From NCBI GenBank assembly GCA_021399345.1, contig JAAFKI010000080.1, positions 1 to 13,825 of the forward strand: a DNA stretch of 13,825 nt, given 5' to 3'. This DNA comes from Candidatus Heimdallarchaeota archaeon. GTDB taxonomy: Archaea > Asgardarchaeota > Heimdallarchaeia > Heimdallarchaeales > Heimdallarchaeaceae. Positions 1 to 10,922 of this stretch are shown one piece after another. The notes below the pieces were generated by a model. It saw nothing but the letters and a program-made list of their open reading frames with translations, did not search any database and was not told where the DNA came from. The position numbers and the translations under genes are program-made. Positions within the stretch are counted from its first letter, which is position 1. Each line of letters begins with the position of its first letter.

Positions 1-633
1 ATCAAGGATCACGGGAGAGGAATCAGAAGTATTATCCAGTATTATTTGAAAAAGCAAACACAATTAAGATTACAATATGTGCAGCAGCAAAAAAAGCAAT
101 TGAAAAAGAGAAATAAACTCAGCTATGGTCCAGCTTACTATGAACTTCGCGAGAAATGGCGGAAGAAACTCAAAGATGCCATTCACAAACTCACAAAATA
201 CTTGGTAGACTTGTGGGTGGAAAGAAACTTACATGAAGTCATCATTGGATATAATGCGAAATGGAAGCAAAATGTTCATTTCTGGAAGAAAATTACACAG
301 ATGTTTGTTGCCATTCCCTTCATGAGAATTATCAACCAGCTGAAATACAAAGCAGCTGAACATGGAATTAAAGTTGAGCTCATCCCTGAACAATATACTT
401 CCAAAAGCAGTTTTTTGGATAATGAGTTTCCTAGGTTTAGGGAGAAGTATGTTGGACGAAGAATAGAACGAGGGTTATTTCGTTCAGCTCAAGGCCATCT
501 AATCAATGCTGATGTCAATGCTGCATATAATATCTTAGTTAAAAGCGATCCGAAAGCACTACCTAAGCGGAGTGTGAACGGGGTAGGAGGATACGTGATG
601 TATCCACGTAGAGTGAGTGTAGACCCACAATGA
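1..633 (+). CDS. tnpB: TnpB RNA-guided endonuclease (IS200/IS605/IS607 superfamily), 5'-truncated by the window edge
   Basis: Frame 1 is open from base 1 (IKDHGRGIRSIIQYYLKK, matching the TnpB G..IKSINQYYNK-type motif). Other motifs: DAIHKLTKYLVD, VIIGYN, PF..IINQLKYKAAEHGIKV, EQYTSKSSFLD, GRRIERGLFRS, and RuvC-III INADVNAAYNIL. No Cys4 zinc finger. Confidence 0.93.
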   Translation: MKDHGRGIRSIIQYYLKKQTQLRLQYVQQQKKQLKKRNKLSYGPAYYELREKWRKKLKDAIHKLTKYLVDLWVERNLHEVIIGYNAKWKQNVHFWKKITQMFVAIPFMRIINQLKYKAAEHGIKVELIPEQYTSKSSFLDNEFPRFREKYVGRRIERGLFRSAQGHLINADVNAAYNILVKSDPKALPKRSVNGVGGYVMYPRRVSVDPQ

Positions 634-1859: not shown

Positions 1860-1881
1860 CTTATTCTAGTAGGAATACTGA

Positions 1882-1890
1882 TTTATAAAA
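1882..1890 (-). promoter_or_regulatory. TATA box of the Zn-ribbon gene (leaderless)
   Basis: TTTTATAAA on the minus strand, 22 nt before the ATG at 1859. Confidence 0.5.
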
Positions 1891-2237
1891 ATATTCAAAT
1901 AAAAAAATAAAAAGGAATTATTGAAGAAGTATATAGTGATCCATGTTTCAAGGTCTTCTTTTAACAAGGGAGACTATACAAAAAGGTAGGATATTAAATG
2001 ATAGCACAGTGTTTCTCAATTTAAATGGAAAAAAGTTAATATTTTTTCTTTACTTTTCCAAAATTCCAATAACAGACACTTTAACAGCTTTTCACACAAA
2101 GTTTTTAAATTGGAATAAACAGAAATCTTTCTGGTTAGCCATTCTCTGGGGGTTCAAAACTGACTGGTCTATTAAGTTCTATTGAAACAGATTATCAACC
2201 GAATAATAAACTCAGAGATATCTATCAAACTGTTTTC

Positions 2238-2852
2238 ATGCTTCAAAAAGTTCTCATAGTTCATCAAGAGACTAGTCTTCCCGTCTTTGAAAAAGACATT
2301 GAAAATACTGTTCCTTATGATGCGGCTATGATCACTGGAGTTCTACAAGCTATTTCATCAATTGGTCAAGAAATGATTGGGAGACCAACAGGTTTCAAGA
2401 AACTACAATATCATGGTTTCGAAGTAACTGGTTCATATTTCAATGGTTTTACAATCTATGTATTTTCAGAAACAGAACTCGTTGAAGAAATAGAAAAGGG
2501 AATGCAGGATCTAATTAAATGGTTCAGCAAAACCTTCAATTCTAAGAAAGATAATTGGGATGGTTCATTGGATGTTTTCAAAATTAGTAGAGCAATAATT
2601 GAAAGCAAAATATCTCAAAACCTATTTATATGGTTACTTTATCCTTTCAAGACATCAAAGGATCAAAATATGGAAGAAGAAAATCTTTCTATTCTTGGAA
2701 AACAAATCTTTGAATGTATTGAGAAGGAACAGAAATGCTCAGCTGCTCTAATTTTAGACCACTTTAAGATCTATGATGAAGAAGAAATTCTTTTTGAGAT
2801 TTTCAATCTAGTTATTAATGGATACATTGAGACTACTTCTAACGATAAATGA
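2238..2852 (+). CDS. Soluble longin-like + winged-helix protein (paralogue A); true start possibly CTG at 2160
   Basis: KVLIVHQETSLPVFE..DAAMITGVLQAI..FKKLQYHGF..IYVFSE..KWF..WDG..IWLLYPF fits a longin-like beta-beta-alpha-beta-beta-beta-alpha-alpha pattern. The C-terminal ILFEIFNLVINGYIE looks like a wHTH. It aligns with the C-termini of the 3972 and 7335 proteins. Confidence 0.85.
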   Translation: MLQKVLIVHQETSLPVFEKDIENTVPYDAAMITGVLQAISSIGQEMIGRPTGFKKLQYHGFEVTGSYFNGFTIYVFSETELVEEIEKGMQDLIKWFSKTFNSKKDNWDGSLDVFKISRAIIESKISQNLFIWLLYPFKTSKDQNMEEENLSILGKQIFECIEKEQKCSAALILDHFKIYDEEEILFEIFNLVINGYIETTSNDK

Positions 2853-2865
2853 ATGGAGTTGAATA

Positions 2866-3051
2866 TTAGTTCCCAGAGTTTCTTTTGCGTACTCCCTCAA
2901 TCATCGCAATTTTATCTTTTTTACCTTTTATCCCTCTAAATTGTATTCCACCTTTCTCAAAACCTTGTCTTTCATCAGTTTGAAACTCTGGTGGGGTTTG
3001 AGGAAACATTTTTAGTAAAAGATTAGAAACAAATTTTCCTATTTTACTCAT
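2866..3051 (-). CDS. Small basic hypothetical protein with an N-terminal amphipathic helix
   Basis: 61-aa ATG ORF filling the gap between two genes without overlap. A TATA-like TTAAATA lies about 30 nt upstream. The N-terminus is MSKIGKFVSNLLLKMF. Confidence 0.55.
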   Translation of the reverse strand: MSKIGKFVSNLLLKMFPQTPPEFQTDERQGFEKGGIQFRGIKGKKDKIAMIEGVRKRNSGN

Positions 3052-3176
3052 TTACTTTCAAATATAAGATACATTCGGAAATATTTAACATTGATGGTTT
3101 AATGGTCACTTGAACAATTTTAAAATATGTAAAGAAGTATACTATAATTTAAGAGAAATTAAGAGGTAGACTGGAT

Positions 3177-3863
3177 TTGAACTACGAAATAATGCTTCAA
3201 GATGTTTTCATGATAAGAAAATTACTTGTAGTTCAACATGAACAGTGTTTACCAGTTTTTGAAATGGACTTAAATAGCCATGTTAACCTTGACCCTTCTC
3301 TTATCTGCGATGTTTTACAGACACAAGATCCTACTCAGGTAGAAAAAATCAGTTCAACAGCTGATATAACTAAAATAAAGTATTACGGTTTCATTGTTTT
3401 AACTACAAGTTATGGGTCATACACAGCTTATCTATTCACTGAACAAGATTTGCAAAGTGATCTCGAAAAAAGTATCGTAGAATTAGTTAAATGGTTTGAT
3501 TTAGTTTTTGGTTTTGATAGTTCAGAAGGAGAGTATTCCGAAGAATTTTCTGATTATTATAAAATAAGTATAATGGACAAAATAACTCATCTGTTTCATC
3601 TATGGTTACTCTACCCACTCGAAATAGATATTCGCAAGCTAGCAGAAATCGAAAGCGAGAGCGTGATATTAAGAGATATTCTAACTCATTTTGCAGAAAA
3701 CAAGCAAACCTCTATAATGAGACTATTAGACGATTTACAGAAATATCCAGTAAATGAAACACTAGGATTATTGTTCAAACTTGTTGAGAAAGAATTTGTT
3801 ATAACCAGTATATCTGATCAGTATACTCAAACATTTTTCGAACTTGATAGAAATAAAGTATGA
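3177..3863 (+). CDS. Soluble longin-like + winged-helix protein (paralogue B, divergent)
   Basis: RKLLVVQHEQCLPVFEMDL..DPSLICDVL..ITKIKYYGF..AYLFTE..KWF..LWLLYPL..LLFKLVEKEFVI. SD-like GAGGT upstream of the TTG start. Confidence 0.85.
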   Translation: MNYEIMLQDVFMIRKLLVVQHEQCLPVFEMDLNSHVNLDPSLICDVLQTQDPTQVEKISSTADITKIKYYGFIVLTTSYGSYTAYLFTEQDLQSDLEKSIVELVKWFDLVFGFDSSEGEYSEEFSDYYKISIMDKITHLFHLWLLYPLEIDIRKLAEIESESVILRDILTHFAENKQTSIMRLLDDLQKYPVNETLGLLFKLVEKEFVITSISDQYTQTFFELDRNKV

Positions 3864-3957
3864 ACTTTAGAAATCTAAATAAAAATCGTTTAATTGCTAC
3901 TTTACATAGATATAAATAATAAATTAACTTTCAAATATTGAGTAAAGGTTATTAGAT

Positions 3958-3967
3958 GTGGGGTTTC
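3958..3967 (+). promoter_or_regulatory. Shine-Dalgarno-like motif GTGGGGTTTC
   Basis: The identical 10-mer occurs at 7320-7329 before ATG 7335. Similar GGGGT motifs lie at 2149-2153 and before the permease ATG. Confidence 0.55.
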
Positions 3968-3971
3968 TTAT

Positions 3972-6900
3972 ATGCAAAGAGCAGCGCATAAAGTCAAAAT
4001 TTATTCAGTTGTGTTTCTTATAGTGCTTAGTTTGTCAATTTATCAAGAACAACTAGTTTCTAAATCAGACTATCAAGAGAAAAACGATATAATAACTTTA
4101 GAACAATATAACCCTGTCTATGTTTCTGATTCTGAACTCCTTTACACTCCAATCACTAATGTATCTGGAGTAGGAAGTAGTTTATCAGGAAAAGATGTTC
4201 TAACTGTTAATGACTATCAATCTCTTAACCTTACTTACAATGAAATAAGTGGGCAATTTGAAGATAATTACACTATTGATCCAATCGCAGGTTATGATCC
4301 ATTTAGACTTAATTATAACATTTCAAGCATCATCGCAAAAACCGATTTGTATCCAATAGAAGCTGAAGGAGATACACAAATGGCGTTAGGTGATGCTTTT
4401 TCAAGACTTGCTATAGCTCAAAGTTTTGATGTTATTTGGGATTATGCAGTCTTTTCAGGTGCTAAATTATACCTTATCGATGATGGTCCTCTTGGTGGAA
4501 CTGAATTAGATTTATTTCTAGTAAAAGCAAATGATTTGACTGGACAACCAAATATGACTGATATTTTATCTAGCGATATTAACGGTCCGTATACTGAAAC
4601 TAATTCACTGCCAGCTAGTACTATTGATAATTTACCCTTTTATGATTTTGCAGATGTTGTTTTGGAAAGTGGCAAATATTTTGTTGTTGCAAATCTAACA
4701 GTTGTTGGAGGACCTAAAAACTTCTTTTGGTATAGTTATAGTGTAGCGCCACTTGATAGTGATACTTACTATATGGATAATTCTGGTGTTTGGAACCTCC
4801 AATTAACTGATCATACTTTTATTCCTCAACTTCTACCAAGTTATGATAATGGAACAGCTTTGGCTTTTAGTGATTTATCCCAGATATCTTTACAAGATAA
4901 TTCTGTAGATGTTCCTTCTACAACTTCATCTATTTCTTCAACTGGATTTCATTTGCTAAGTTGTGATACTTCAGTGGAGTTAGTGTTCAATAATTCTTAC
5001 TCTTTTTCAAAAGATGTGACAGTTGATACTTCTTTTACAGCAATCAATTCAACATCTGGCATTTACTCTAATATATGGACATTACAATGGTCAACTTCAG
5101 AAGCTGATTATTCACCTTATCCTAATATGGAAAGGTCCATTTTAATATTCACTCCTACTGACTGGTCTGATAGTTCTACCTGTTATTATAACGACACTGA
5201 TGTCCTTAGCTCTCTGAAAACGATTGATGGATATTTGGTTAATTTAGGATTTAACATTTCTGCAGGAACATTTAGATTAGAAACTATGAGTCTTAATTAT
5301 GTTCAACAATTGACTCTTTCAGACGATTCCGGACCTGCAAGTATCTTCTCTTTAGGATATTGGACTACTGATACTATCGATGCCTTTGGAAATGAAGGCT
5401 CAACCGTGAATTTCGAAATTAATGTTCAGAATAATGAGGATACTGGAAGTACAAATGTTACTTTGTTTGATCCAAATGGAAACATTTTACCACAAAAGAT
5501 AGCTCTTCCCTCAAACCTTACATATATTGATATTTCTTCGTATACAAAGAATGGAATACTATCTAGTGGTTCTGGATTATATGCCTCAAGTTTAACCTTC
5601 GATCCATCAGCATATGGATCTGATATTGCTGGCGAATGGACAGCTTTTGTTTATTGGACCAATGGTACTCAATCGGGTTTATTTGCTAAAAAAATATTTG
5701 TTGAAGCTGAGATAGTTTTCAATCCTTCTTGGGAAACACTTCCAAATAGTGATGTATGGACCTATATTACTTCAAATACAATCTTAAGAATGAACGGTGA
5801 TTCGTTAAGAGCTCGTTCAGATTTCTACTCTATAAGTGAACCTTTCTTTGGTAGTATGGGGCAAGCATTAGTAAATGCAACTGTTTCTTATACTACAAGT
5901 TGGGGTCTTTCTGGTAATTTTAGTGAGAATGGTGTGCTTTTCAATTCTACAGTTCCAATAAGTGTTGATGCTGGTTTTCATACTATAACTTTGGATGCCT
6001 CTAGCTCGCAGAGTAAATCTAGTAAGATACAACTAAATCTAGAAGTTTTCAACTTGTTCTCATTAGTTGTAGATCAGGCTTCTATAGAGATTAATTCTAC
6101 AGATGAAGCTGTTCTAAGATTCAAATTATTGAATATGACTGATCCTTTGCAGAGTGTTATTTATCCTGATGATTTTAGTGTCTATATCAATGATGCACTA
6201 ATAGCTGAAGGTTTTTACGAGCAGACCATAGATGGAGATTGGGTTGTATTAACAATGACTATGCAAACCTCAGGAACCCATAAAGTAACTGTAACTGTTT
6301 CTAAGGCAAATTTCAAAGCTGGATATCTTGATGATCAGAGTAGTTTTGATTACACCGTTAAAGTCAATCCAACTGAACAACTACAACTCCCTCCTTATCT
6401 CATTATCATAATCGTTGTAGGAGGTATTCTTCTAATAACTCTTCTAACAGCTGTAATAGCAATTCCAAGATCTAGAAAATCCAAAGCTCCAATTGTAGAT
6501 GTGCAGAGTAAAGCTAAAGTTGTAGGGTTGCTAGATAGTGTTCTTTCTATGCGAAAAATATTGTTTATTCATTCTGAAACCAGCTTGCCTGTTTTTGAGC
6601 TTGATATTGGAAGTGAGCATTCAATAGAAACTGCTCTTGTATCGGGTTTTCTAAGTGCTGTCGAAACCATGGGTAAAACCCTTGGAGGTAGTGATACTGG
6701 AGAAATTAAACGTCTCGAGTATAGGAATTTCGTTGTTACAGGTGCTAGTTCAGAAACTTATACAGTTTTTCTCTTCTCTTCAAATGAAGTCATAAAGGAA
6801 TTTCAAGCAAGATTGTTTGACCTGATAATGTGGTTTGAATATAGTTTCAAAATCAAAGAAAAAGTGTGGAATGGAAAGAAAGAGATGTTCAATTCTAAGA

Positions 6901-7172
6901 AGAAACTCATTGAAGACAAGGTTGCAGAATCTCTTTATCTGTGGATTTACTTCCCTCTCAGATTCAACAAGCAAAAATCAGGTGAAATTAAGAAACTTGA
7001 TAAAATGGAACAAAAAATTGCAGAATTTGGAAAGAAGAAAGGAGAAGTCACAATTAGTTCTCTATTACAGAGATATAGTGATTATGAAATTGAGGACACT
7101 CTTACAGCTGTTTTCGGTTTGGTTAATAAAGGGATTCTGATACGAAACCAATTTTCTTCCTTTAGCGGTTAG
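3972..7172 (+). CDS. Large single-pass membrane protein: signal peptide, beta-rich glycosylated ectodomain, TM helix, cytoplasmic longin-like + wHTH module (receptor-like R1)
   Basis: Hydrophobic N-terminus (IYSVVFLIVLSLSI). About 800 aa of S/T/D/N-rich ectodomain with about 19 N-x-S/T sequons. TM YLIIIIVVGGILLITLLTAVIAI (about 6396-6464) followed by RSRKSK. The C-terminal module (from about 6549) is homologous to ORFs 2238 and 3177. Confidence 0.9.
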   Translation: MQRAAHKVKIYSVVFLIVLSLSIYQEQLVSKSDYQEKNDIITLEQYNPVYVSDSELLYTPITNVSGVGSSLSGKDVLTVNDYQSLNLTYNEISGQFEDNYTIDPIAGYDPFRLNYNISSIIAKTDLYPIEAEGDTQMALGDAFSRLAIAQSFDVIWDYAVFSGAKLYLIDDGPLGGTELDLFLVKANDLTGQPNMTDILSSDINGPYTETNSLPASTIDNLPFYDFADVVLESGKYFVVANLTVVGGPKNFFWYSYSVAPLDSDTYYMDNSGVWNLQLTDHTFIPQLLPSYDNGTALAFSDLSQISLQDNSVDVPSTTSSISSTGFHLLSCDTSVELVFNNSYSFSKDVTVDTSFTAINSTSGIYSNIWTLQWSTSEADYSPYPNMERSILIFTPTDWSDSSTCYYNDTDVLSSLKTIDGYLVNLGFNISAGTFRLETMSLNYVQQLTLSDDSGPASIFSLGYWTTDTIDAFGNEGSTVNFEINVQNNEDTGSTNVTLFDPNGNILPQKIALPSNLTYIDISSYTKNGILSSGSGLYASSLTFDPSAYGSDIAGEWTAFVYWTNGTQSGLFAKKIFVEAEIVFNPSWETLPNSDVWTYITSNTILRMNGDSLRARSDFYSISEPFFGSMGQALVNATVSYTTSWGLSGNFSENGVLFNSTVPISVDAGFHTITLDASSSQSKSSKIQLNLEVFNLFSLVVDQASIEINSTDEAVLRFKLLNMTDPLQSVIYPDDFSVYINDALIAEGFYEQTIDGDWVVLTMTMQTSGTHKVTVTVSKANFKAGYLDDQSSFDYTVKVNPTEQLQLPPYLIIIIVVGGILLITLLTAVIAIPRSRKSKAPIVDVQSKAKVVGLLDSVLSMRKILFIHSETSLPVFELDIGSEHSIETALVSGFLSAVETMGKTLGGSDTGEIKRLEYRNFVVTGASSETYTVFLFSSNEVIKEFQARLFDLIMWFEYSFKIKEKVWNGKKEMFNSKKKLIEDKVAESLYLWIYFPLRFNKQKSGEIKKLDKMEQKIAEFGKKKGEVTISSLLQRYSDYEIEDTLTAVFGLVNKGILIRNQFSSFSG

Positions 7173-7270
7173 AATTCTCACCTATGCTTGTTCTTCATAA
7201 CATTTGAAAGAGATTCAAAGTCTATCTTTAGTGAAATTAAGTAGAATTCTTGTCCAAAAGTAACTAATAA

Positions 7271-7278
7271 TTTATAAA
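7271..7278 (+). promoter_or_regulatory. Possible TATA box for the second large membrane protein
   Basis: TTTATAAA in the intergenic region upstream of the SD-like motif at 7320. Confidence 0.4.
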
Positions 7279-7334
7279 TAAAAACTGTTTTGTAAAATAA
7301 ACAACAATTCTAACATGAAGTGGGGTTTCAATTT

Positions 7335-10300
7335 ATGGTTCAAGAAAAGTCCAAGAGTTATTTGTTACTCATTATATTGTTCTTAAATTTAGCTAGTTTC
7401 GGATTAGATACAAATATACAAGGAATTCAAGATGTTAATCAAGTTAATAATCTGATTAATGCAGAAGATAATTTCAGCATCATTAATAATCACAAAATAC
7501 ACCAAACTGTCAAATTAAATTATGATCCTATTGATTCCTTCGAAGGTACAGGAAATACTTTTTCAGTTTTAGATGAACTCAGTGTAATGCATTCTACTAG
7601 TCTTTCATTAAATGAAGGTAACAATCAAGAAGACAGTTTTAATCTGCAATCTCCAACTAGTTTTACTCCAGATATTCTTACTTATAACCTATCAATAAGT
7701 AGCACATCTGATATCTATGAGCTTCCGGTTTCTGTTCAAAACAAACATGCAACTCTTGATTCTGGTACAATACGATTAGCTCAAGCTTTTCAAGTTAATT
7801 ATGACTATGCAGTATTTTATGGTGCTGAACTAGATTTGGTAATTGATGGACCTACTCTTAGCAATGATGAAATCGAGCTGTATGTTGTAAAAGCAGATGG
7901 ATTGATTGAACCTAATTTAGCAGATATTCGAGCTTATGAAATTAATGGTCCTTATAATTTATCGAATTCTATTCCTGCGAGCTTATTAGCAAATTATGGT
8001 GATTATGATTTCTTGAATGTAACAAAAACGGGAGAAACAGTATTAGAGATGGGAACATATTTTGTAGTAATAGAGTTAACTGTTGTAGATGACACCGAAG
8101 ATGAATATGACTGGTTAGGTAAGCAAGGAGGAGAATCTGAATATCCTTATTACACTCATGATGGAGCTTCATGGACTCATATATCCGATGAAACAAGAGG
8201 ATTAAATGTAGAATTGATGCAATCTGATTCAGAAGGTAATGCACTTGAAATTACTGACCCTTCAACTATTTCTTTAACTGATAATGCAGTTCCAATAACC
8301 TCACTTACACAAGATATTGTAGGAGATGGAGTTCACACACTTAGTTCAAATACTTCTGTAGAAATCTCTATGAATAATTCATATGCTTTCAATCGAATAA
8401 TTACTGCTTCTTCTACTTACAGTGTGTTAAATTCATCTCACTTGGACGAAACTGTATCTTGGACAATTAACTGGACAAGTGGACTTTTGAATTTACAATC
8501 ATATACAAACCCCATAAGAAGCCAAGAGCTTCATACATCAGATGATTGGAACAATGTTACATTCAGTTTAATGGTAAATGACTCAATCTCTATTCCTGGA
8601 GCTAAAACGTCATCAGGATATCTTTTTGACGTGATCACACTTCTTACAGGTGATAAATATGAATCAGGTAGCTTTTCATTTACAACTACTAGTTTAAATT
8701 ATCTTTATGATATATCATTAAATTCGAATTCGTTTAATTTGGGATACTGGACCACAAATGGAACACATGCAACAGGTTATAATGGATCAACAGTAACAGC
8801 TGATGTTTATATTAAAGATTCTTTATTAAATGACGAACTATCAGGAAATGTCAATTTCACTCTTTATGACCCTAATGGAAATATTGTTCCTGTTAAGAAT
8901 GATAGTCTTTATCCAACCATAATATTTTCGGATGTTACTCCTTATACTATCCTAGATAGTACTCAAGAAAGTGCAGGTACGTATTCGATAAGTACAGTGT
9001 TCGATCCATCAATTAATGGAACAGATATAGAGGGTTCATGGACAGCTGTTTGTTATTGGAATAATGGTACTGAAATTGGTTTTTACAGTTTAACTGTTTC
9101 TGTTAGCAAATCAACAACAGCATCTTTCAGTTGGGAAGAAACAGTTGGGGGAGATGATTACACTAATTCTTCTATTTCGATTGACAGAATAAATCAAGAA
9201 AGTGTAAGTGTTCGAATTTTATATAATAATGTGAGTGATCTATTCTACTCGGGAGAAGGAACACCTATAACAGCTGCCCCCGTTGCCTATAATACTTCAT
9301 GGGGAACATCTGGATTCTTAAGCTTTGTTGATCCTTACTATGAAAGCAATATACTAATTGATACTGTTACTGGTAATTATTCAATTACTCTATCTGCAAC
9401 TGGTTCAAATCTACAAGAGCATTCAATAACTTTCGATATTCACGTTTATCATACTTTTATAATAAATCCAACCTCAGCAGGAAACTTCCAAGCATATTAT
9501 AATGATGATGAATCACTAGTGCAATTCTATGTTGAAGACACTTCAAATTCTAGTGCTTCAATTCTTCCTGATGATTATGCATTCTATTTAGATAATGTTC
9601 TCTTAACCGATATTATAGATTATAATGTTAAAGAGTCTGCAGGTACAAATCTAATTCAATTAGAGCTCTACAGTGATATTGCTGGACTTGATTTACTCCC
9701 AAGCACTTATTCAATCAGAATTTCTGTAACTAAAGATGATTTCATTGTAAACTATAGTCAAGCTAATGCTACTACAACAGTTAACTTACAGATATTGACA
9801 ACTACAACATCCTTAGAAATTGTCTCTTCCGATGATGAAATACATCATGGTAATGAAACAACAATCACTTTTCACTATGTAGATACTATTCATTCAGAGA
9901 ATATCTTGGGAGCAAGTTTTGATATTTCATTTGATCTTGATTCAGAAGATGCAGAGATAATTGGAACTCCAACAGAAACAATGGGATTATATTCAGTTAC
10001 AATTAGAATTAATGCTCCTACAGAACTGAGTATCAACATCTTCCTAACAATCAACAAACCTGGATACGAAGCAAAATCAAGCATAACAATAAAATCAATT
10101 TCGATAATTCCTCCTATAGAAGATGAAGGTATTCCAATTTATATTTACATAATTATTGGCATCTTCGCCTTAATTGTAATAGTTACACCATCAACAGTCT
10201 TTGTTAGAAGAAAGTTTGATAAGGATGAAAGAGCTGAAAAAGCACTTTTTGCAAGAATATATGGTTTGTATGAAAGTGTTTTATCTATTACAAAATTAAT

Positions 10301-10922
10301 AATTGTCCATAAGTCTACTGGCTTACCAGTTTATGAAATGGATTTAGGTTCAGAGATTTCTCTAGATCCTTCACTTATTACAGGATTCCTTACAGCTATT
10401 GCCTCAATGGGTGTGGAGTTAAGAGATGATAAAGCTGGTTCTATTAAAAGACTACAATATAAGAATTTTTCAATAACTGGTTCTGAATCTGGACAATTTA
10501 CTCTTTATACTTTCTCAGAAACAGATCTTAATGAGGAGATAGAAGGGAAATTAACAGTTATTAGTGAGTGGTTCGCTAAAATGTTTAGTGGTGTAACAGA
10601 AGAATGGGATGGATCCACAGAAGTCTTTCGTATAAACCTCCAAGGAATCACTGAAAAAATCATGAAGGAAATTCATCTATGGATTTTTTATCCTTTCACA
10701 GTATCTCCATATAAACAGACTGAGATTGAAGAATTTAATGGTTTACGAAAACGTTTAGTTGAATATATTACTGAAGGAGATAATATTACCATAAGTCGTA
10801 TCTTTGATGAACTTGATGATATTAGGATTGAAAAAGGACTCCCAATAATTTTTGAATTTATTGAAAATGGGATTTTGATTCCCGTTTTCGATGCATATAA
10901 AATTGCTACAGTCCGTTTCTAA
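7335..10922 (+). CDS. Large single-pass membrane protein, paralogue of 3972..7172 (receptor-like R2)
   Basis: The ORF track starts at GTG 7320, but that codon is part of the SD-like motif, so ATG 7335 is more likely. Signal peptide YLLLIILFLNLASFG. Ectodomain motifs shared with R1 (DYAVF.GA.L, INGPY, LGYWTT, DPNGNI.P, FDPS, W.NGT, TSWG). TM at about 10131-10205 followed by RRK. Cytoplasmic DPSLITGFLTAI..IKRLQYKNF..WDG..LWIFYPF..FEFIENGIL. Confidence 0.9.
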   Translation: MVQEKSKSYLLLIILFLNLASFGLDTNIQGIQDVNQVNNLINAEDNFSIINNHKIHQTVKLNYDPIDSFEGTGNTFSVLDELSVMHSTSLSLNEGNNQEDSFNLQSPTSFTPDILTYNLSISSTSDIYELPVSVQNKHATLDSGTIRLAQAFQVNYDYAVFYGAELDLVIDGPTLSNDEIELYVVKADGLIEPNLADIRAYEINGPYNLSNSIPASLLANYGDYDFLNVTKTGETVLEMGTYFVVIELTVVDDTEDEYDWLGKQGGESEYPYYTHDGASWTHISDETRGLNVELMQSDSEGNALEITDPSTISLTDNAVPITSLTQDIVGDGVHTLSSNTSVEISMNNSYAFNRIITASSTYSVLNSSHLDETVSWTINWTSGLLNLQSYTNPIRSQELHTSDDWNNVTFSLMVNDSISIPGAKTSSGYLFDVITLLTGDKYESGSFSFTTTSLNYLYDISLNSNSFNLGYWTTNGTHATGYNGSTVTADVYIKDSLLNDELSGNVNFTLYDPNGNIVPVKNDSLYPTIIFSDVTPYTILDSTQESAGTYSISTVFDPSINGTDIEGSWTAVCYWNNGTEIGFYSLTVSVSKSTTASFSWEETVGGDDYTNSSISIDRINQESVSVRILYNNVSDLFYSGEGTPITAAPVAYNTSWGTSGFLSFVDPYYESNILIDTVTGNYSITLSATGSNLQEHSITFDIHVYHTFIINPTSAGNFQAYYNDDESLVQFYVEDTSNSSASILPDDYAFYLDNVLLTDIIDYNVKESAGTNLIQLELYSDIAGLDLLPSTYSIRISVTKDDFIVNYSQANATTTVNLQILTTTTSLEIVSSDDEIHHGNETTITFHYVDTIHSENILGASFDISFDLDSEDAEIIGTPTETMGLYSVTIRINAPTELSINIFLTINKPGYEAKSSITIKSISIIPPIEDEGIPIYIYIIIGIFALIVIVTPSTVFVRRKFDKDERAEKALFARIYGLYESVLSITKLIIVHKSTGLPVYEMDLGSEISLDPSLITGFLTAIASMGVELRDDKAGSIKRLQYKNFSITGSESGQFTLYTFSETDLNEEIEGKLTVISEWFAKMFSGVTEEWDGSTEVFRINLQGITEKIMKEIHLWIFYPFTVSPYKQTEIEEFNGLRKRLVEYITEGDNITISRIFDELDDIRIEKGLPIIFEFIENGILIPVFDAYKIATVRF

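Follow-up and report, generated by a model that had tools for sequence, protein, structure and literature searches.

The window analysed here, a 13.8 kb stretch that constitutes the whole of one contig (C7) of a Candidatus Heimdallarchaeota archaeon (genome of 3.27 Mb, 88.6% complete), is filled between positions 2238 and 10922 by four co-oriented plus strand genes, termed S1, S2, R1 and R2, the products of which have a module of about 200 residues in common. In agreement with the initial annotation of this DNA, the four genes follow each other directly; two of them encode the module as a stand-alone protein, while the other two encode proteins of more than 1000 residues with a signal peptide and a single transmembrane (TM) helix that carry it as their C-terminal tail. 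The module is predicted to combine a longin fold with a winged helix, and we see about an even chance that the cluster couples surface proteins to the cytoplasm through longin dimers formed by the receptor tails and the soluble copies.

S1 (2238-2852) has 204 residues and consists of nothing but the module. S2 (3177-3863) comprises 228 residues when read from a TTG codon, with in-frame ATG codons at 3192 and 3210. R1 (3972-7172, 1066 residues) is a type-I single-pass surface protein with a signal-like N-terminus, an all-beta ectodomain, a TM helix and the module, and R2 (7320-10922, 1200 residues, GTG start with an ATG at 7335) is its paralogue with a homologous, longer ectodomain. Part of the region given in the initial annotation did not hold up: its start at position 2160 lies in non-coding or unconserved DNA, and the first gene begins at 2238. 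An 80-aa open reading frame just upstream of S1 (1943-2185, plus strand) has neither a Pfam match nor a counterpart in the related loci and is probably no gene.

Across the four proteins the module can be aligned over about 200 residues, with 30-37% identity to S1 and 21 invariant columns, and within the genome the module profile scores at E = 1e-96 to 1e-99, far beyond chance. The sequence motif put forward in the initial annotation applies to S1, R1 and R2 and fails for S2 at G.L.A and W[DN]G; S2 is divergent in helix alpha1 (G34D, A38T and a proline inside the helix) and the W[DN]G motif is absent. In R1 (residues 858-1057, positions 6543-7142) and R2 (residues 988-1187, positions 10281-10880) the module forms the extreme C-terminus, starting about 29-33 residues past the sole strong internal hydrophobic helix, which is followed by a cluster of basic residues.

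For structure prediction, 1.84 billion representative proteins were searched (297 clusters at E <= 1e-3), and an alignment of 85 modules obtained in this way was fed to AlphaFold2 (AF2). The resulting model of S1 is confident, with a predicted local distance difference test score (pLDDT) of 88.3 and a predicted template modelling score (pTM) of 0.81. Residues 1-128 contain strands at 2-9, 14-20, 54-58, 61-68 and 71-77 and helices at 29-47, 83-103 and 112-128, i.e., the longin order b1-b2-a1-b3-b4-b5-a2-a3 without an N-terminal helix, and residues 137-199 form a three-helix winged-helix unit (helices 152-164, 169-175 and 181-193, strand 197-199). When the S1 model was submitted to Foldseek, the best 50 matches were all longin or Roadblock proteins. 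VIA-align with residues 1-135 gave Z scores of 11-12 over about 120-130 residues to Trs23, Sec22b, Bet5, AP5 sigma, AP4 mu, Fuzzy and sedlin, among them Z 12.2 for Trs23 (125 aa, root-mean-square deviation (rmsd) 3.3), 12.1 for Sec22b (122 aa, rmsd 2.9) and 11.6 for AP5 sigma (129 aa, rmsd 3.1), as well as Z 11.3 for the solved Lokiarchaeal longin dimer 8yqg (130 aa, rmsd 3.7). As these values are tied, the module is not assignable to one longin subfamily. The winged-helix unit (S1 residues 144-204) matched MecI with Z 8.8 over 59 aa (rmsd 2.5, 19% identity), a single row for a part of the model that the search barely tested. Taken together, the structural matches agree with the suggestion made in the initial annotation that a longin fold is followed by a winged helix.

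Sequence-based searches retrieved none of these relationships. Pfam yielded nothing significant for the four proteins, 36 full-length relatives and the 85 modules, and the same was true for NCBIfam with six proteins. The curated longin-type Pfam families (Longin, Sybindin, Sedlin_N, Clat_adaptor_s etc.) had no match at E <= 1 in the four proteins and the 85 family members. A sequence search of the PDB with the 4- and the 85-sequence profiles returned only spurious coiled-coil matches (haemagglutinin HA2, BICD) and touches of the Z-alpha winged helix at E ~1, and a fold search of the ESM Atlas with the module led only to unannotated Asgard clusters. Judged by its predicted structure, the module is thus a longin by fold that belongs to no curated sequence family.

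With regard to known longins, the closest resemblance is to those of eukaryotic trafficking (TRAPPC4/Trs23, TRAPPC1/Bet5, sedlin, Sec22b, VAMP7, Ykt6, the N-terminal domains of AP sigma and mu, zeta-COP, Fuzzy/Inturned, Mon1-Ccz1 and SRX) and to 8yqg, all of which have the same beta2-alpha1-beta3-alpha2-alpha3 topology, Z scores of 10-12 over about 120-130 residues and the alpha1/beta3 dimer that is also predicted for the module. The module differs from the trafficking longins in lacking a match to longin-type Pfam families, in the winged helix that follows and in its position at the C-terminus of type-I surface proteins, where it is tethered on the cytoplasmic side of the membrane. In longin SNAREs the layout is reversed: the longin is cytoplasmic and N-terminal, the anchor C-terminal, and there is no ectodomain. 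Any GTPase, SNARE or coat partner of the module is, moreover, hypothetical. Roadblock/LC7 proteins (MglB, LAMTOR2/3, Asgard Roadblock homodimers) share the alpha-beta core (Z 9-11 over about 95-103 residues) and the dimer geometry, but are permuted, having one helix at the N-terminus and only one at the C-terminus, while S1 starts with beta1 and ends with two helices, which is the longin permutation. The Pfam family Robl_LC7 matched seven other loci in the genome and none in the window.

NPRL2 and NPRL3 of the GATOR1 complex resemble the module in having an N-terminal longin followed by one or several winged-helix units, a likeness of architecture only; both are soluble, much larger and contain more than one winged helix. 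Pfam NPR2 had no match in the four proteins, in the 85 family members or, at E <= 1, in the genome (88.6% complete), and Pfam NPR3 had none in the four proteins and the 85 members; among the structural matches listed, NPRL2, NPRL3 and DENN-type longins were absent, which does not imply their exclusion. The paralogues NPRL2 and NPRL3 heterodimerise (Levine 2013, PMC3747258). Asgard genomes have been reported to contain many longins of this kind ('NPRL2-like longin' asCOG families) that are fused to signalling domains (bioRxiv 10.1101/2020.10.19.343400). Compared with these families by description only, the surface protein with a longin-winged-helix tail is a new architecture of known folds that is widespread in Asgard archaea. 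Our literature search found no paper in which a type-I surface protein has a longin as its cytoplasmic tail, in line with the statement of the initial annotation that no characterised system with this architecture is known, and we know of no such protein in eukaryotes.

Both R1 and R2 open with a signal-like hydrophobic segment and possess one strong hydrophobic helix each, peaking in hydropathy at 3.1 in R1 (residues 811-829 of a TM helix spanning approximately residues 811-833, positions 6402-6470) and at 2.75 in R2 (residues 937-955 of approximately 937-959, positions 10128-10196), with the basic stretches RSRKSK and RRKFDK, respectively, immediately behind. The long N-terminal parts are acidic, poor in lysine and arginine and rich in serine, threonine and asparagine. 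N-glycosylation sequons (N-x-S/T) number 19 in R1 vs. 11.2 +/- 3.0 in shuffled sequences and 24 in R2 vs. 16.7 +/- 3.3, and none is found in the R1 tail. On the basis of the signal segment, the single TM helix with its basic cluster and the composition and sequons of the ectodomain, the N-terminus of both proteins is placed outside and the C-terminus inside the cell.

The ectodomain of R1 (residues 28-810, positions 4053-6401) appears to be a sequon-rich chain of immunoglobulin (Ig)-like beta-sandwiches. An AF2 model of residues 28-812 built with 30 homologues is an all-beta chain (pLDDT 87.6), for which Foldseek gave as best match an S-layer protein of Nitrosopumilus maritimus (3.6e-12), followed by titin, alpha2-macroglobulins, bacterial adhesins and Ig-type cell adhesion molecules (IgCAMs). 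There were more than 500 matches at E <= 1e-3, all of them Ig-like chains, and identity to the structural matches amounted to 8-14% with low TM-scores, so that the likeness to S-layer, adhesin and Ig proteins is one of predicted fold only. No Pfam Ig-type domain was significant in the ectodomains, and in a feature search of the ESM Atlas the R1 ectodomain yielded archaeal lectin-like and Ig-like proteins solely as leads below threshold (0.85). Archaeal S-layer proteins, bacterial adhesins and IgCAMs share with R1 and R2 the Ig-like sandwich chain, glycosylation sequons and a variable distal end; IgCAMs and cadherins also have one TM helix and a folded cytoplasmic tail, which in their case binds soluble partners. 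None of the S-layer, adhesin and IgCAM structures matched by Foldseek carries a longin tail, and no S-layer protein, adhesin or IgCAM with such a tail is known to us. Of the extracellular sensor or adhesin pair envisaged in the initial annotation, the surface protein with the multi-Ig appearance of adhesins and S-layer proteins is thus retained, while a ligand-binding sensor domain was not recognisable among the structural matches of the R1 ectodomain. Its description as kinase-free proved accurate: neither a histidine kinase, HAMP, MCP, GGDEF or Ser/Thr kinase domain nor any other known output domain of Pfam or NCBIfam was detected in R1, R2 and 36 relatives.

In the following, G000 denotes the source genome, L008-L018 loci from metagenome-assembled genomes (MAGs) of Heimdallarchaeota, L021-L025 Lokiarchaeal loci and L028 the C169 stretch of G000. 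The module profile matched 196 of 201 sampled Asgard genomes, including all 85 of high quality, usually with many copies per genome; the best 150 matches all span the whole module, whereas weaker ones may cover its longin half only. The named sources are Heimdall-, Loki- (Promethearchaeota), Thor-, Hod- and Hermodarchaeota, and the proteins are always listed as 'hypothetical protein'. Within a sample of 217 full-module proteins, which under-represents short proteins, a TM helix lies at most 80 residues upstream of the module in 200 cases, at a median distance of 27 aa (interquartile range 27-31), and the module ends the protein in 209. In a large Lokiarchaeal family of proteins of about 750 aa it is placed behind an ectodomain that is unrelated by BLAST to the Heimdall type. 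The module behaves as a portable cytoplasmic domain of membrane proteins. A conserved gene of 194 aa beside the Lokiarchaeal pairs was considered as a soluble module copy and rejected, as it encodes an unrelated multi-pass membrane protein.

The source genome itself holds a fifth copy of the module in a membrane protein of 1666 aa on C169 and a sixth, distant and soluble full-module copy of 214 aa, also on C169 (region G000:C169:215168-221512, corresponding to L028 3168-9512, minus strand). The latter belongs to a co-oriented row encoding a RagA/Arf-like GTPase (414 aa), a DAG-kinase-like protein (308 aa), a protein of 154 aa, the longin-winged-helix protein and a BlaR1-like M48/M56 membrane peptidase of 849 aa. 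Without the winged helix, the longin half ends two TPR proteins of about 677 aa and is also fused to several multi-pass membrane proteins (C143 26372-28402, minus; C192 33052-35088, minus; C147 3283-4446, plus; C123 38396-39493, minus; C153 21908-23230, minus). This longin type is widely reused as a modular adaptor domain, for which fusions to TPR and multi-pass proteins are as expected.

A DNA-level search with the four-row module alignment recovered 13 related loci, all of them from MAGs labelled Heimdallarchaeota. The cluster of soluble and membrane copies is kept between the same flanking genes in several of these and recurs in genomes of the same genus, such that the conserved co-location on which the initial annotation depended is indeed seen in related Heimdallarchaeota. 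Orthologues of S1 are 89-90% identical in L008-L010 and 67-68% in L011-L014, those of S2 94% in L016, 91-92% in L009 and L010 and 76% in L014, those of R1 87% in L016, 72% in L018 and 44% in L011, and those of R2 73% in L017 and 57-60% in L010, L016 and L018. The make-up of the cluster varies: L011 and L012 have S1 and two receptors, L016 has S2 and three receptors, L017 and L018 have two or three adjacent receptors, the first of which is cut by the contig end, and L010 combines S1, S2 and R2 with a broken R1 and with a partial receptor frame (5458-6822) whose tail is of the R3 type. In L010 the R1 region is split into shorter frames (2353-2934, 2822-3208, 3250-4911 and 5458-6822 within 2353-6822), i.e., a degraded receptor gene or assembly errors. 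At the place where the window (1860-3176) has S1, L016 (1992-6131) carries genes for a TPR protein, a 282-aa protein of unknown function and a NosD/beta-helix protein, and between R1 and R2 it contains a third receptor gene, R3 (10732-14316), that is absent from the window (7173-7319). As judged from these comparisons, the locus appears to be a hotspot of gene gain and loss.

Phylogenetic analysis of the modules resolved S1, S2, R1, R2 and R3 as separate stable orthogroups, which identifies the soluble copies as old, maintained genes and not as fragments. Both soluble types cluster with one type of receptor tail (support 99/97), S1 as a clade of its own and S2 on a long stem branch. When the window is compared with L016, the flanking genes are 96-97% identical (synonymous divergence (dS) 0.16-0.34), while R2 as a whole is only 58% identical (dS 0.8-1.7). 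This divergence is unevenly distributed along the protein: the membrane-distal 300 residues, the hypervariable part of R2 (residues 30-330, positions 7407-8309), are 27% identical between the two and the module 89%, and across its orthologues the tip has 27-42% identity as opposed to 89-92% for the modules. The ratio of non-synonymous to synonymous substitution rates (dN/dS) lies at 0.05-0.15 for the modules, with 0.15 for that of R1 vs. L016 and 0.05-0.07 for that of R2, compared with 0.57 for the R2 tip; S2 has 0.13 vs. L016, and every value is below 1. By these ratios and identities the tails are as constrained as the housekeeping neighbours. The ratios place S2 under purifying selection and the modules under strong purifying selection, and the distal tip of R2 is replaced or diversified between close relatives. 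Diversified distal tips are usual for exposed binding surfaces.

Pairing of a soluble copy with a receptor tail, as postulated in the initial annotation, was modelled for S1 and the tail of R2 including the juxtamembrane linker, each with its own alignment, in three runs and with three controls. The complex scored 0.65 (runs 0.65, 0.61 and 0.65) vs. 0.00 for the best control; the mark of 0.65 is reached by 58 of 80 solved complexes and by 2 of 110 mismatched pairs. At least 90% of contacts are common to the runs, and the partners have a pLDDT of 77 or more. The predicted interface is pseudo-symmetric: each chain contributes its helix alpha1 and its strand beta3, and the two beta3 strands pair in antiparallel fashion. 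It involves S1 residues 27-49 and 51-61 and their equivalents in R2, and two residues that are nearly invariant in the family, G43 and E45 (S1 numbering), fall inside it. Longin and Roadblock dimers are defined by contact through this alpha1/beta3 surface (Levine 2013, PMC3747258). S1 and the R2 tail are accordingly predicted in silico to pair via the canonical longin interface. S2 may pair differently from the other three modules, having in its alpha1 an aspartate for the invariant glycine, a threonine for the invariant alanine and an internal proline.

From these elements the following picture can be drawn. R1 and R2 would be glycosylated type-I cell-surface proteins with a stalk of Ig-like domains and one TM helix each, and the fast-diversifying distal tip would most likely bind a target outside the cell, be it another cell, a partner organism, a virus or a polymer. 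The short juxtamembrane linker, the length of which is tightly conserved in the family, would hold the longin and the acidic winged helix close to the membrane on its cytoplasmic side. As in other longin and Roadblock domains, helix alpha1 and strand beta3 may make the module a dimerisation unit, so that receptor tails could pair with each other or with the co-encoded S1 and S2. The tail platform may be completed or capped by the soluble copies, or they may compete for it, and a hypothetical cytoplasmic partner could be recruited by the assembled dimer together with its acidic winged helices. Of this picture, the domain layout, the fold, the sequence conservation, the gene order and the hypervariable tip are shown, and pairing of S1 with the tail is predicted in silico, whereas external binding, regulation by pairing, recruitment of an effector and any 'signalling' are inferred.

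Several points weigh against coupling through longin dimers. In L011 and L012 the receptors are accompanied by S1 alone and in L016 by S2 alone, and with S1 and S2 not always both present there is no fixed stoichiometry. The Lokiarchaeal proteins of about 750 aa are typically encoded in tandem, as pairs or triplets, with no soluble copy next to them, and in L021 and L022 a soluble copy was not found even at E <= 10; a soluble partner is therefore no general requirement of the family. The complex score for S1 and the R2 tail expresses the confidence of a model and is no measurement; it may partly reflect remembered solved longin and Roadblock dimers, and it cannot tell which of the four modules pair, as paralogues at 30-37% identity would probably pass too. 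Support is computational throughout, and the cytoplasmic effector would still be a hypothetical one. Finally, the S-layer protein that is the best match of the ectodomain fits a purely structural role in the envelope equally well.

Such a role is the first alternative to be weighed, and we regard it as somewhat unlikely. R1 and R2 would then be parts of a non-crystalline Asgard surface coat or plain adhesins, and would transmit no information across the membrane. The module would be needed only to assemble, sort, anchor or laterally cluster them, and S1 and S2 would either help in assembly or be left over from a duplication of the tail. The Foldseek ranking, in which the Nitrosopumilus S-layer protein is followed by adhesins and titin-like Ig chains, speaks for it, as do the many copies per genome, the almost universal presence in the phylum and the enrichment in sequons together with the acidic, S/T/N-rich composition of R1 and R2, features typical of archaeal envelope glycoproteins. 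Cryo-electron tomography of a Lokiarchaeon, moreover, revealed no ordered S-layer and numerous complex surface proteins (PMC9834061), for some of which the module family could be a candidate. On the other hand, the tail is the most conserved part of the proteins, its distance of 27 aa from the membrane is tightly kept, and separate soluble orthogroups are maintained under purifying selection, all of which is more than a passive anchor would need. In addition, ectodomains of at least two families, unrelated by BLAST, occur in combination with this module.

A second alternative, which we consider unlikely, specifies the output: a tail-tail or tail-soluble longin dimer would act as membrane-tethered platform, guanine nucleotide exchange factor or GTPase-activating protein for one of the Ras/Arf/Rag-like GTPases, relaying external binding to a GTPase switch. 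Not all longins bind GTPases, and the longins of SNAREs and the sigma and mu subunits of AP complexes do not. The genome encodes about 49 small GTPases, and the predicted S1-R2 dimer uses the canonical interface of longin and Roadblock dimers, which are general GTPase platforms (Levine 2013, PMC3747258). Weak matches of the module profile extend to the C-terminal domains of Rag-like GTPase fusions, a RagA-like GTPase gene belongs to the co-oriented row of the distant soluble paralogue on C169, and in L021 (14968-17154, plus strand) two repeats of an Arf/RagA-like GTPase gene and a 143-aa gene directly follow a tandem pair of about 770 aa each. The 143-aa genes are without Pfam match, and the syntenic loci L022-L025 do not share this arrangement. 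However, small-GTPase genes are not enriched near module genes (four in 256 kb around 15 loci, i.e., 0.31 per 20 kb vs. 0.30 genome-wide) and none is located on the 13.8-kb contig, so the GTPase link proposed in the initial annotation receives no backing from the genome. This lack of synteny is weak evidence, because Asgard GTPases are reported to be generally absent from operons with longin or Roadblock genes (PMC10933270). Receptor signalling to GTPases or DNA remains a hypothesis of which the former branch is neither supported nor excluded and the latter is disfavoured.

The case against the DNA branch derives from the winged helix, the net charge of which is -9 in S1, -3 in S2, +3 in R1 and -6 in R2 (family median +1), with -5, 0, -3 and -2, respectively, in the region of helix 3, the recognition helix. 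DNA-binding winged helices are typically basic, and with a domain that is acidic to near neutral DNA binding is unlikely for these four proteins; neither a basic recognition helix or wing nor a match to a DNA-binding winged-helix family was found in them, Pfam touches being single and insignificant. Judged by its charge alone, the winged helix is here probably a protein-binding unit and not a DNA reader. The nearest solved winged helix is that of the repressor MecI (Z 8.8), one family member has a marginal match to Pfam Penicillinase_R (E = 0.027), and on C169 the BlaR1-like M48/M56 membrane peptidase gene lies 36 bp downstream of the distant soluble paralogue on the same strand, a neighbourhood worth mentioning since MecI is controlled by a protease of the BlaR1/MecR1 type. 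Unlike in BlaI/MecI, the winged helix of the module is C-terminal to a longin and acidic, there is no significant Penicillinase_R match, and the cluster in the window is devoid of a protease gene. With these differences, and with a tail about 30 aa from the membrane that would hardly reach DNA without cleavage, a membrane-tethered or proteolytically released transcription regulator, in which the tail or soluble copy would be a BlaI/MecI-type repressor controlled from the membrane, is very improbable.

A far-reaching extension of coupling through longin dimers would be a phylum-wide, kinase-free link from surface to cytoplasm in which Ig-like receptors with polymorphic tips, the longin-winged-helix platform and the soluble paralogues recruit small GTPases or factors of cytoskeletal and membrane remodelling; we hold this to be doubtful. 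If true, it would represent a prokaryotic forerunner of the eukaryotic coupling of adhesion or cargo receptors to longin adaptors and GTPases and would give a molecular identity to the 'complex surface proteins' on Asgard cells. Longin domains belong to the eukaryote-like building blocks of Asgard archaea. The type described here, which has no annotation in Pfam and NCBIfam, is the regular cytoplasmic tail of single-pass surface proteins in nearly all Asgard genomes sampled and is accompanied by soluble paralogues in Heimdallarchaeota. Should the tails form recruiting platforms, they would provide a concrete, testable link between the elaborate Asgard surface, thought to mediate cell-cell contacts relevant to eukaryogenesis, and the expanded repertoire of longins, GTPases and cytoskeletal proteins. 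The small soluble proteins and the tails lend themselves readily to expression, structure determination and binding screens.

The cluster is flanked on the right by genes for a DsrE-like protein, DinB and an amino-acid permease. On the left, the contig starts with the 3' part of a TnpB/Cas12f-like gene (1-633, plus strand, cut by the contig start; Pfam OrfB_IS605 and Cas12f1-like TNB domains), followed by a two-domain gelsolin gene and a small Zn-ribbon gene, both on the minus strand. The gelsolin gene (724-1407) is one of just two in the genome and is located about 0.8 kb from the cluster with one gene between. Gelsolin-like genes with weak Pfam matches are also present 0.8-3.7 kb from tandem module membrane genes in L022 (13051-13896, minus strand) and L025 (15947-16768, minus strand), and not in L021 and L024. 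The proximity of gelsolin genes to module loci may be due to chance or may reflect an old link to the actin system.

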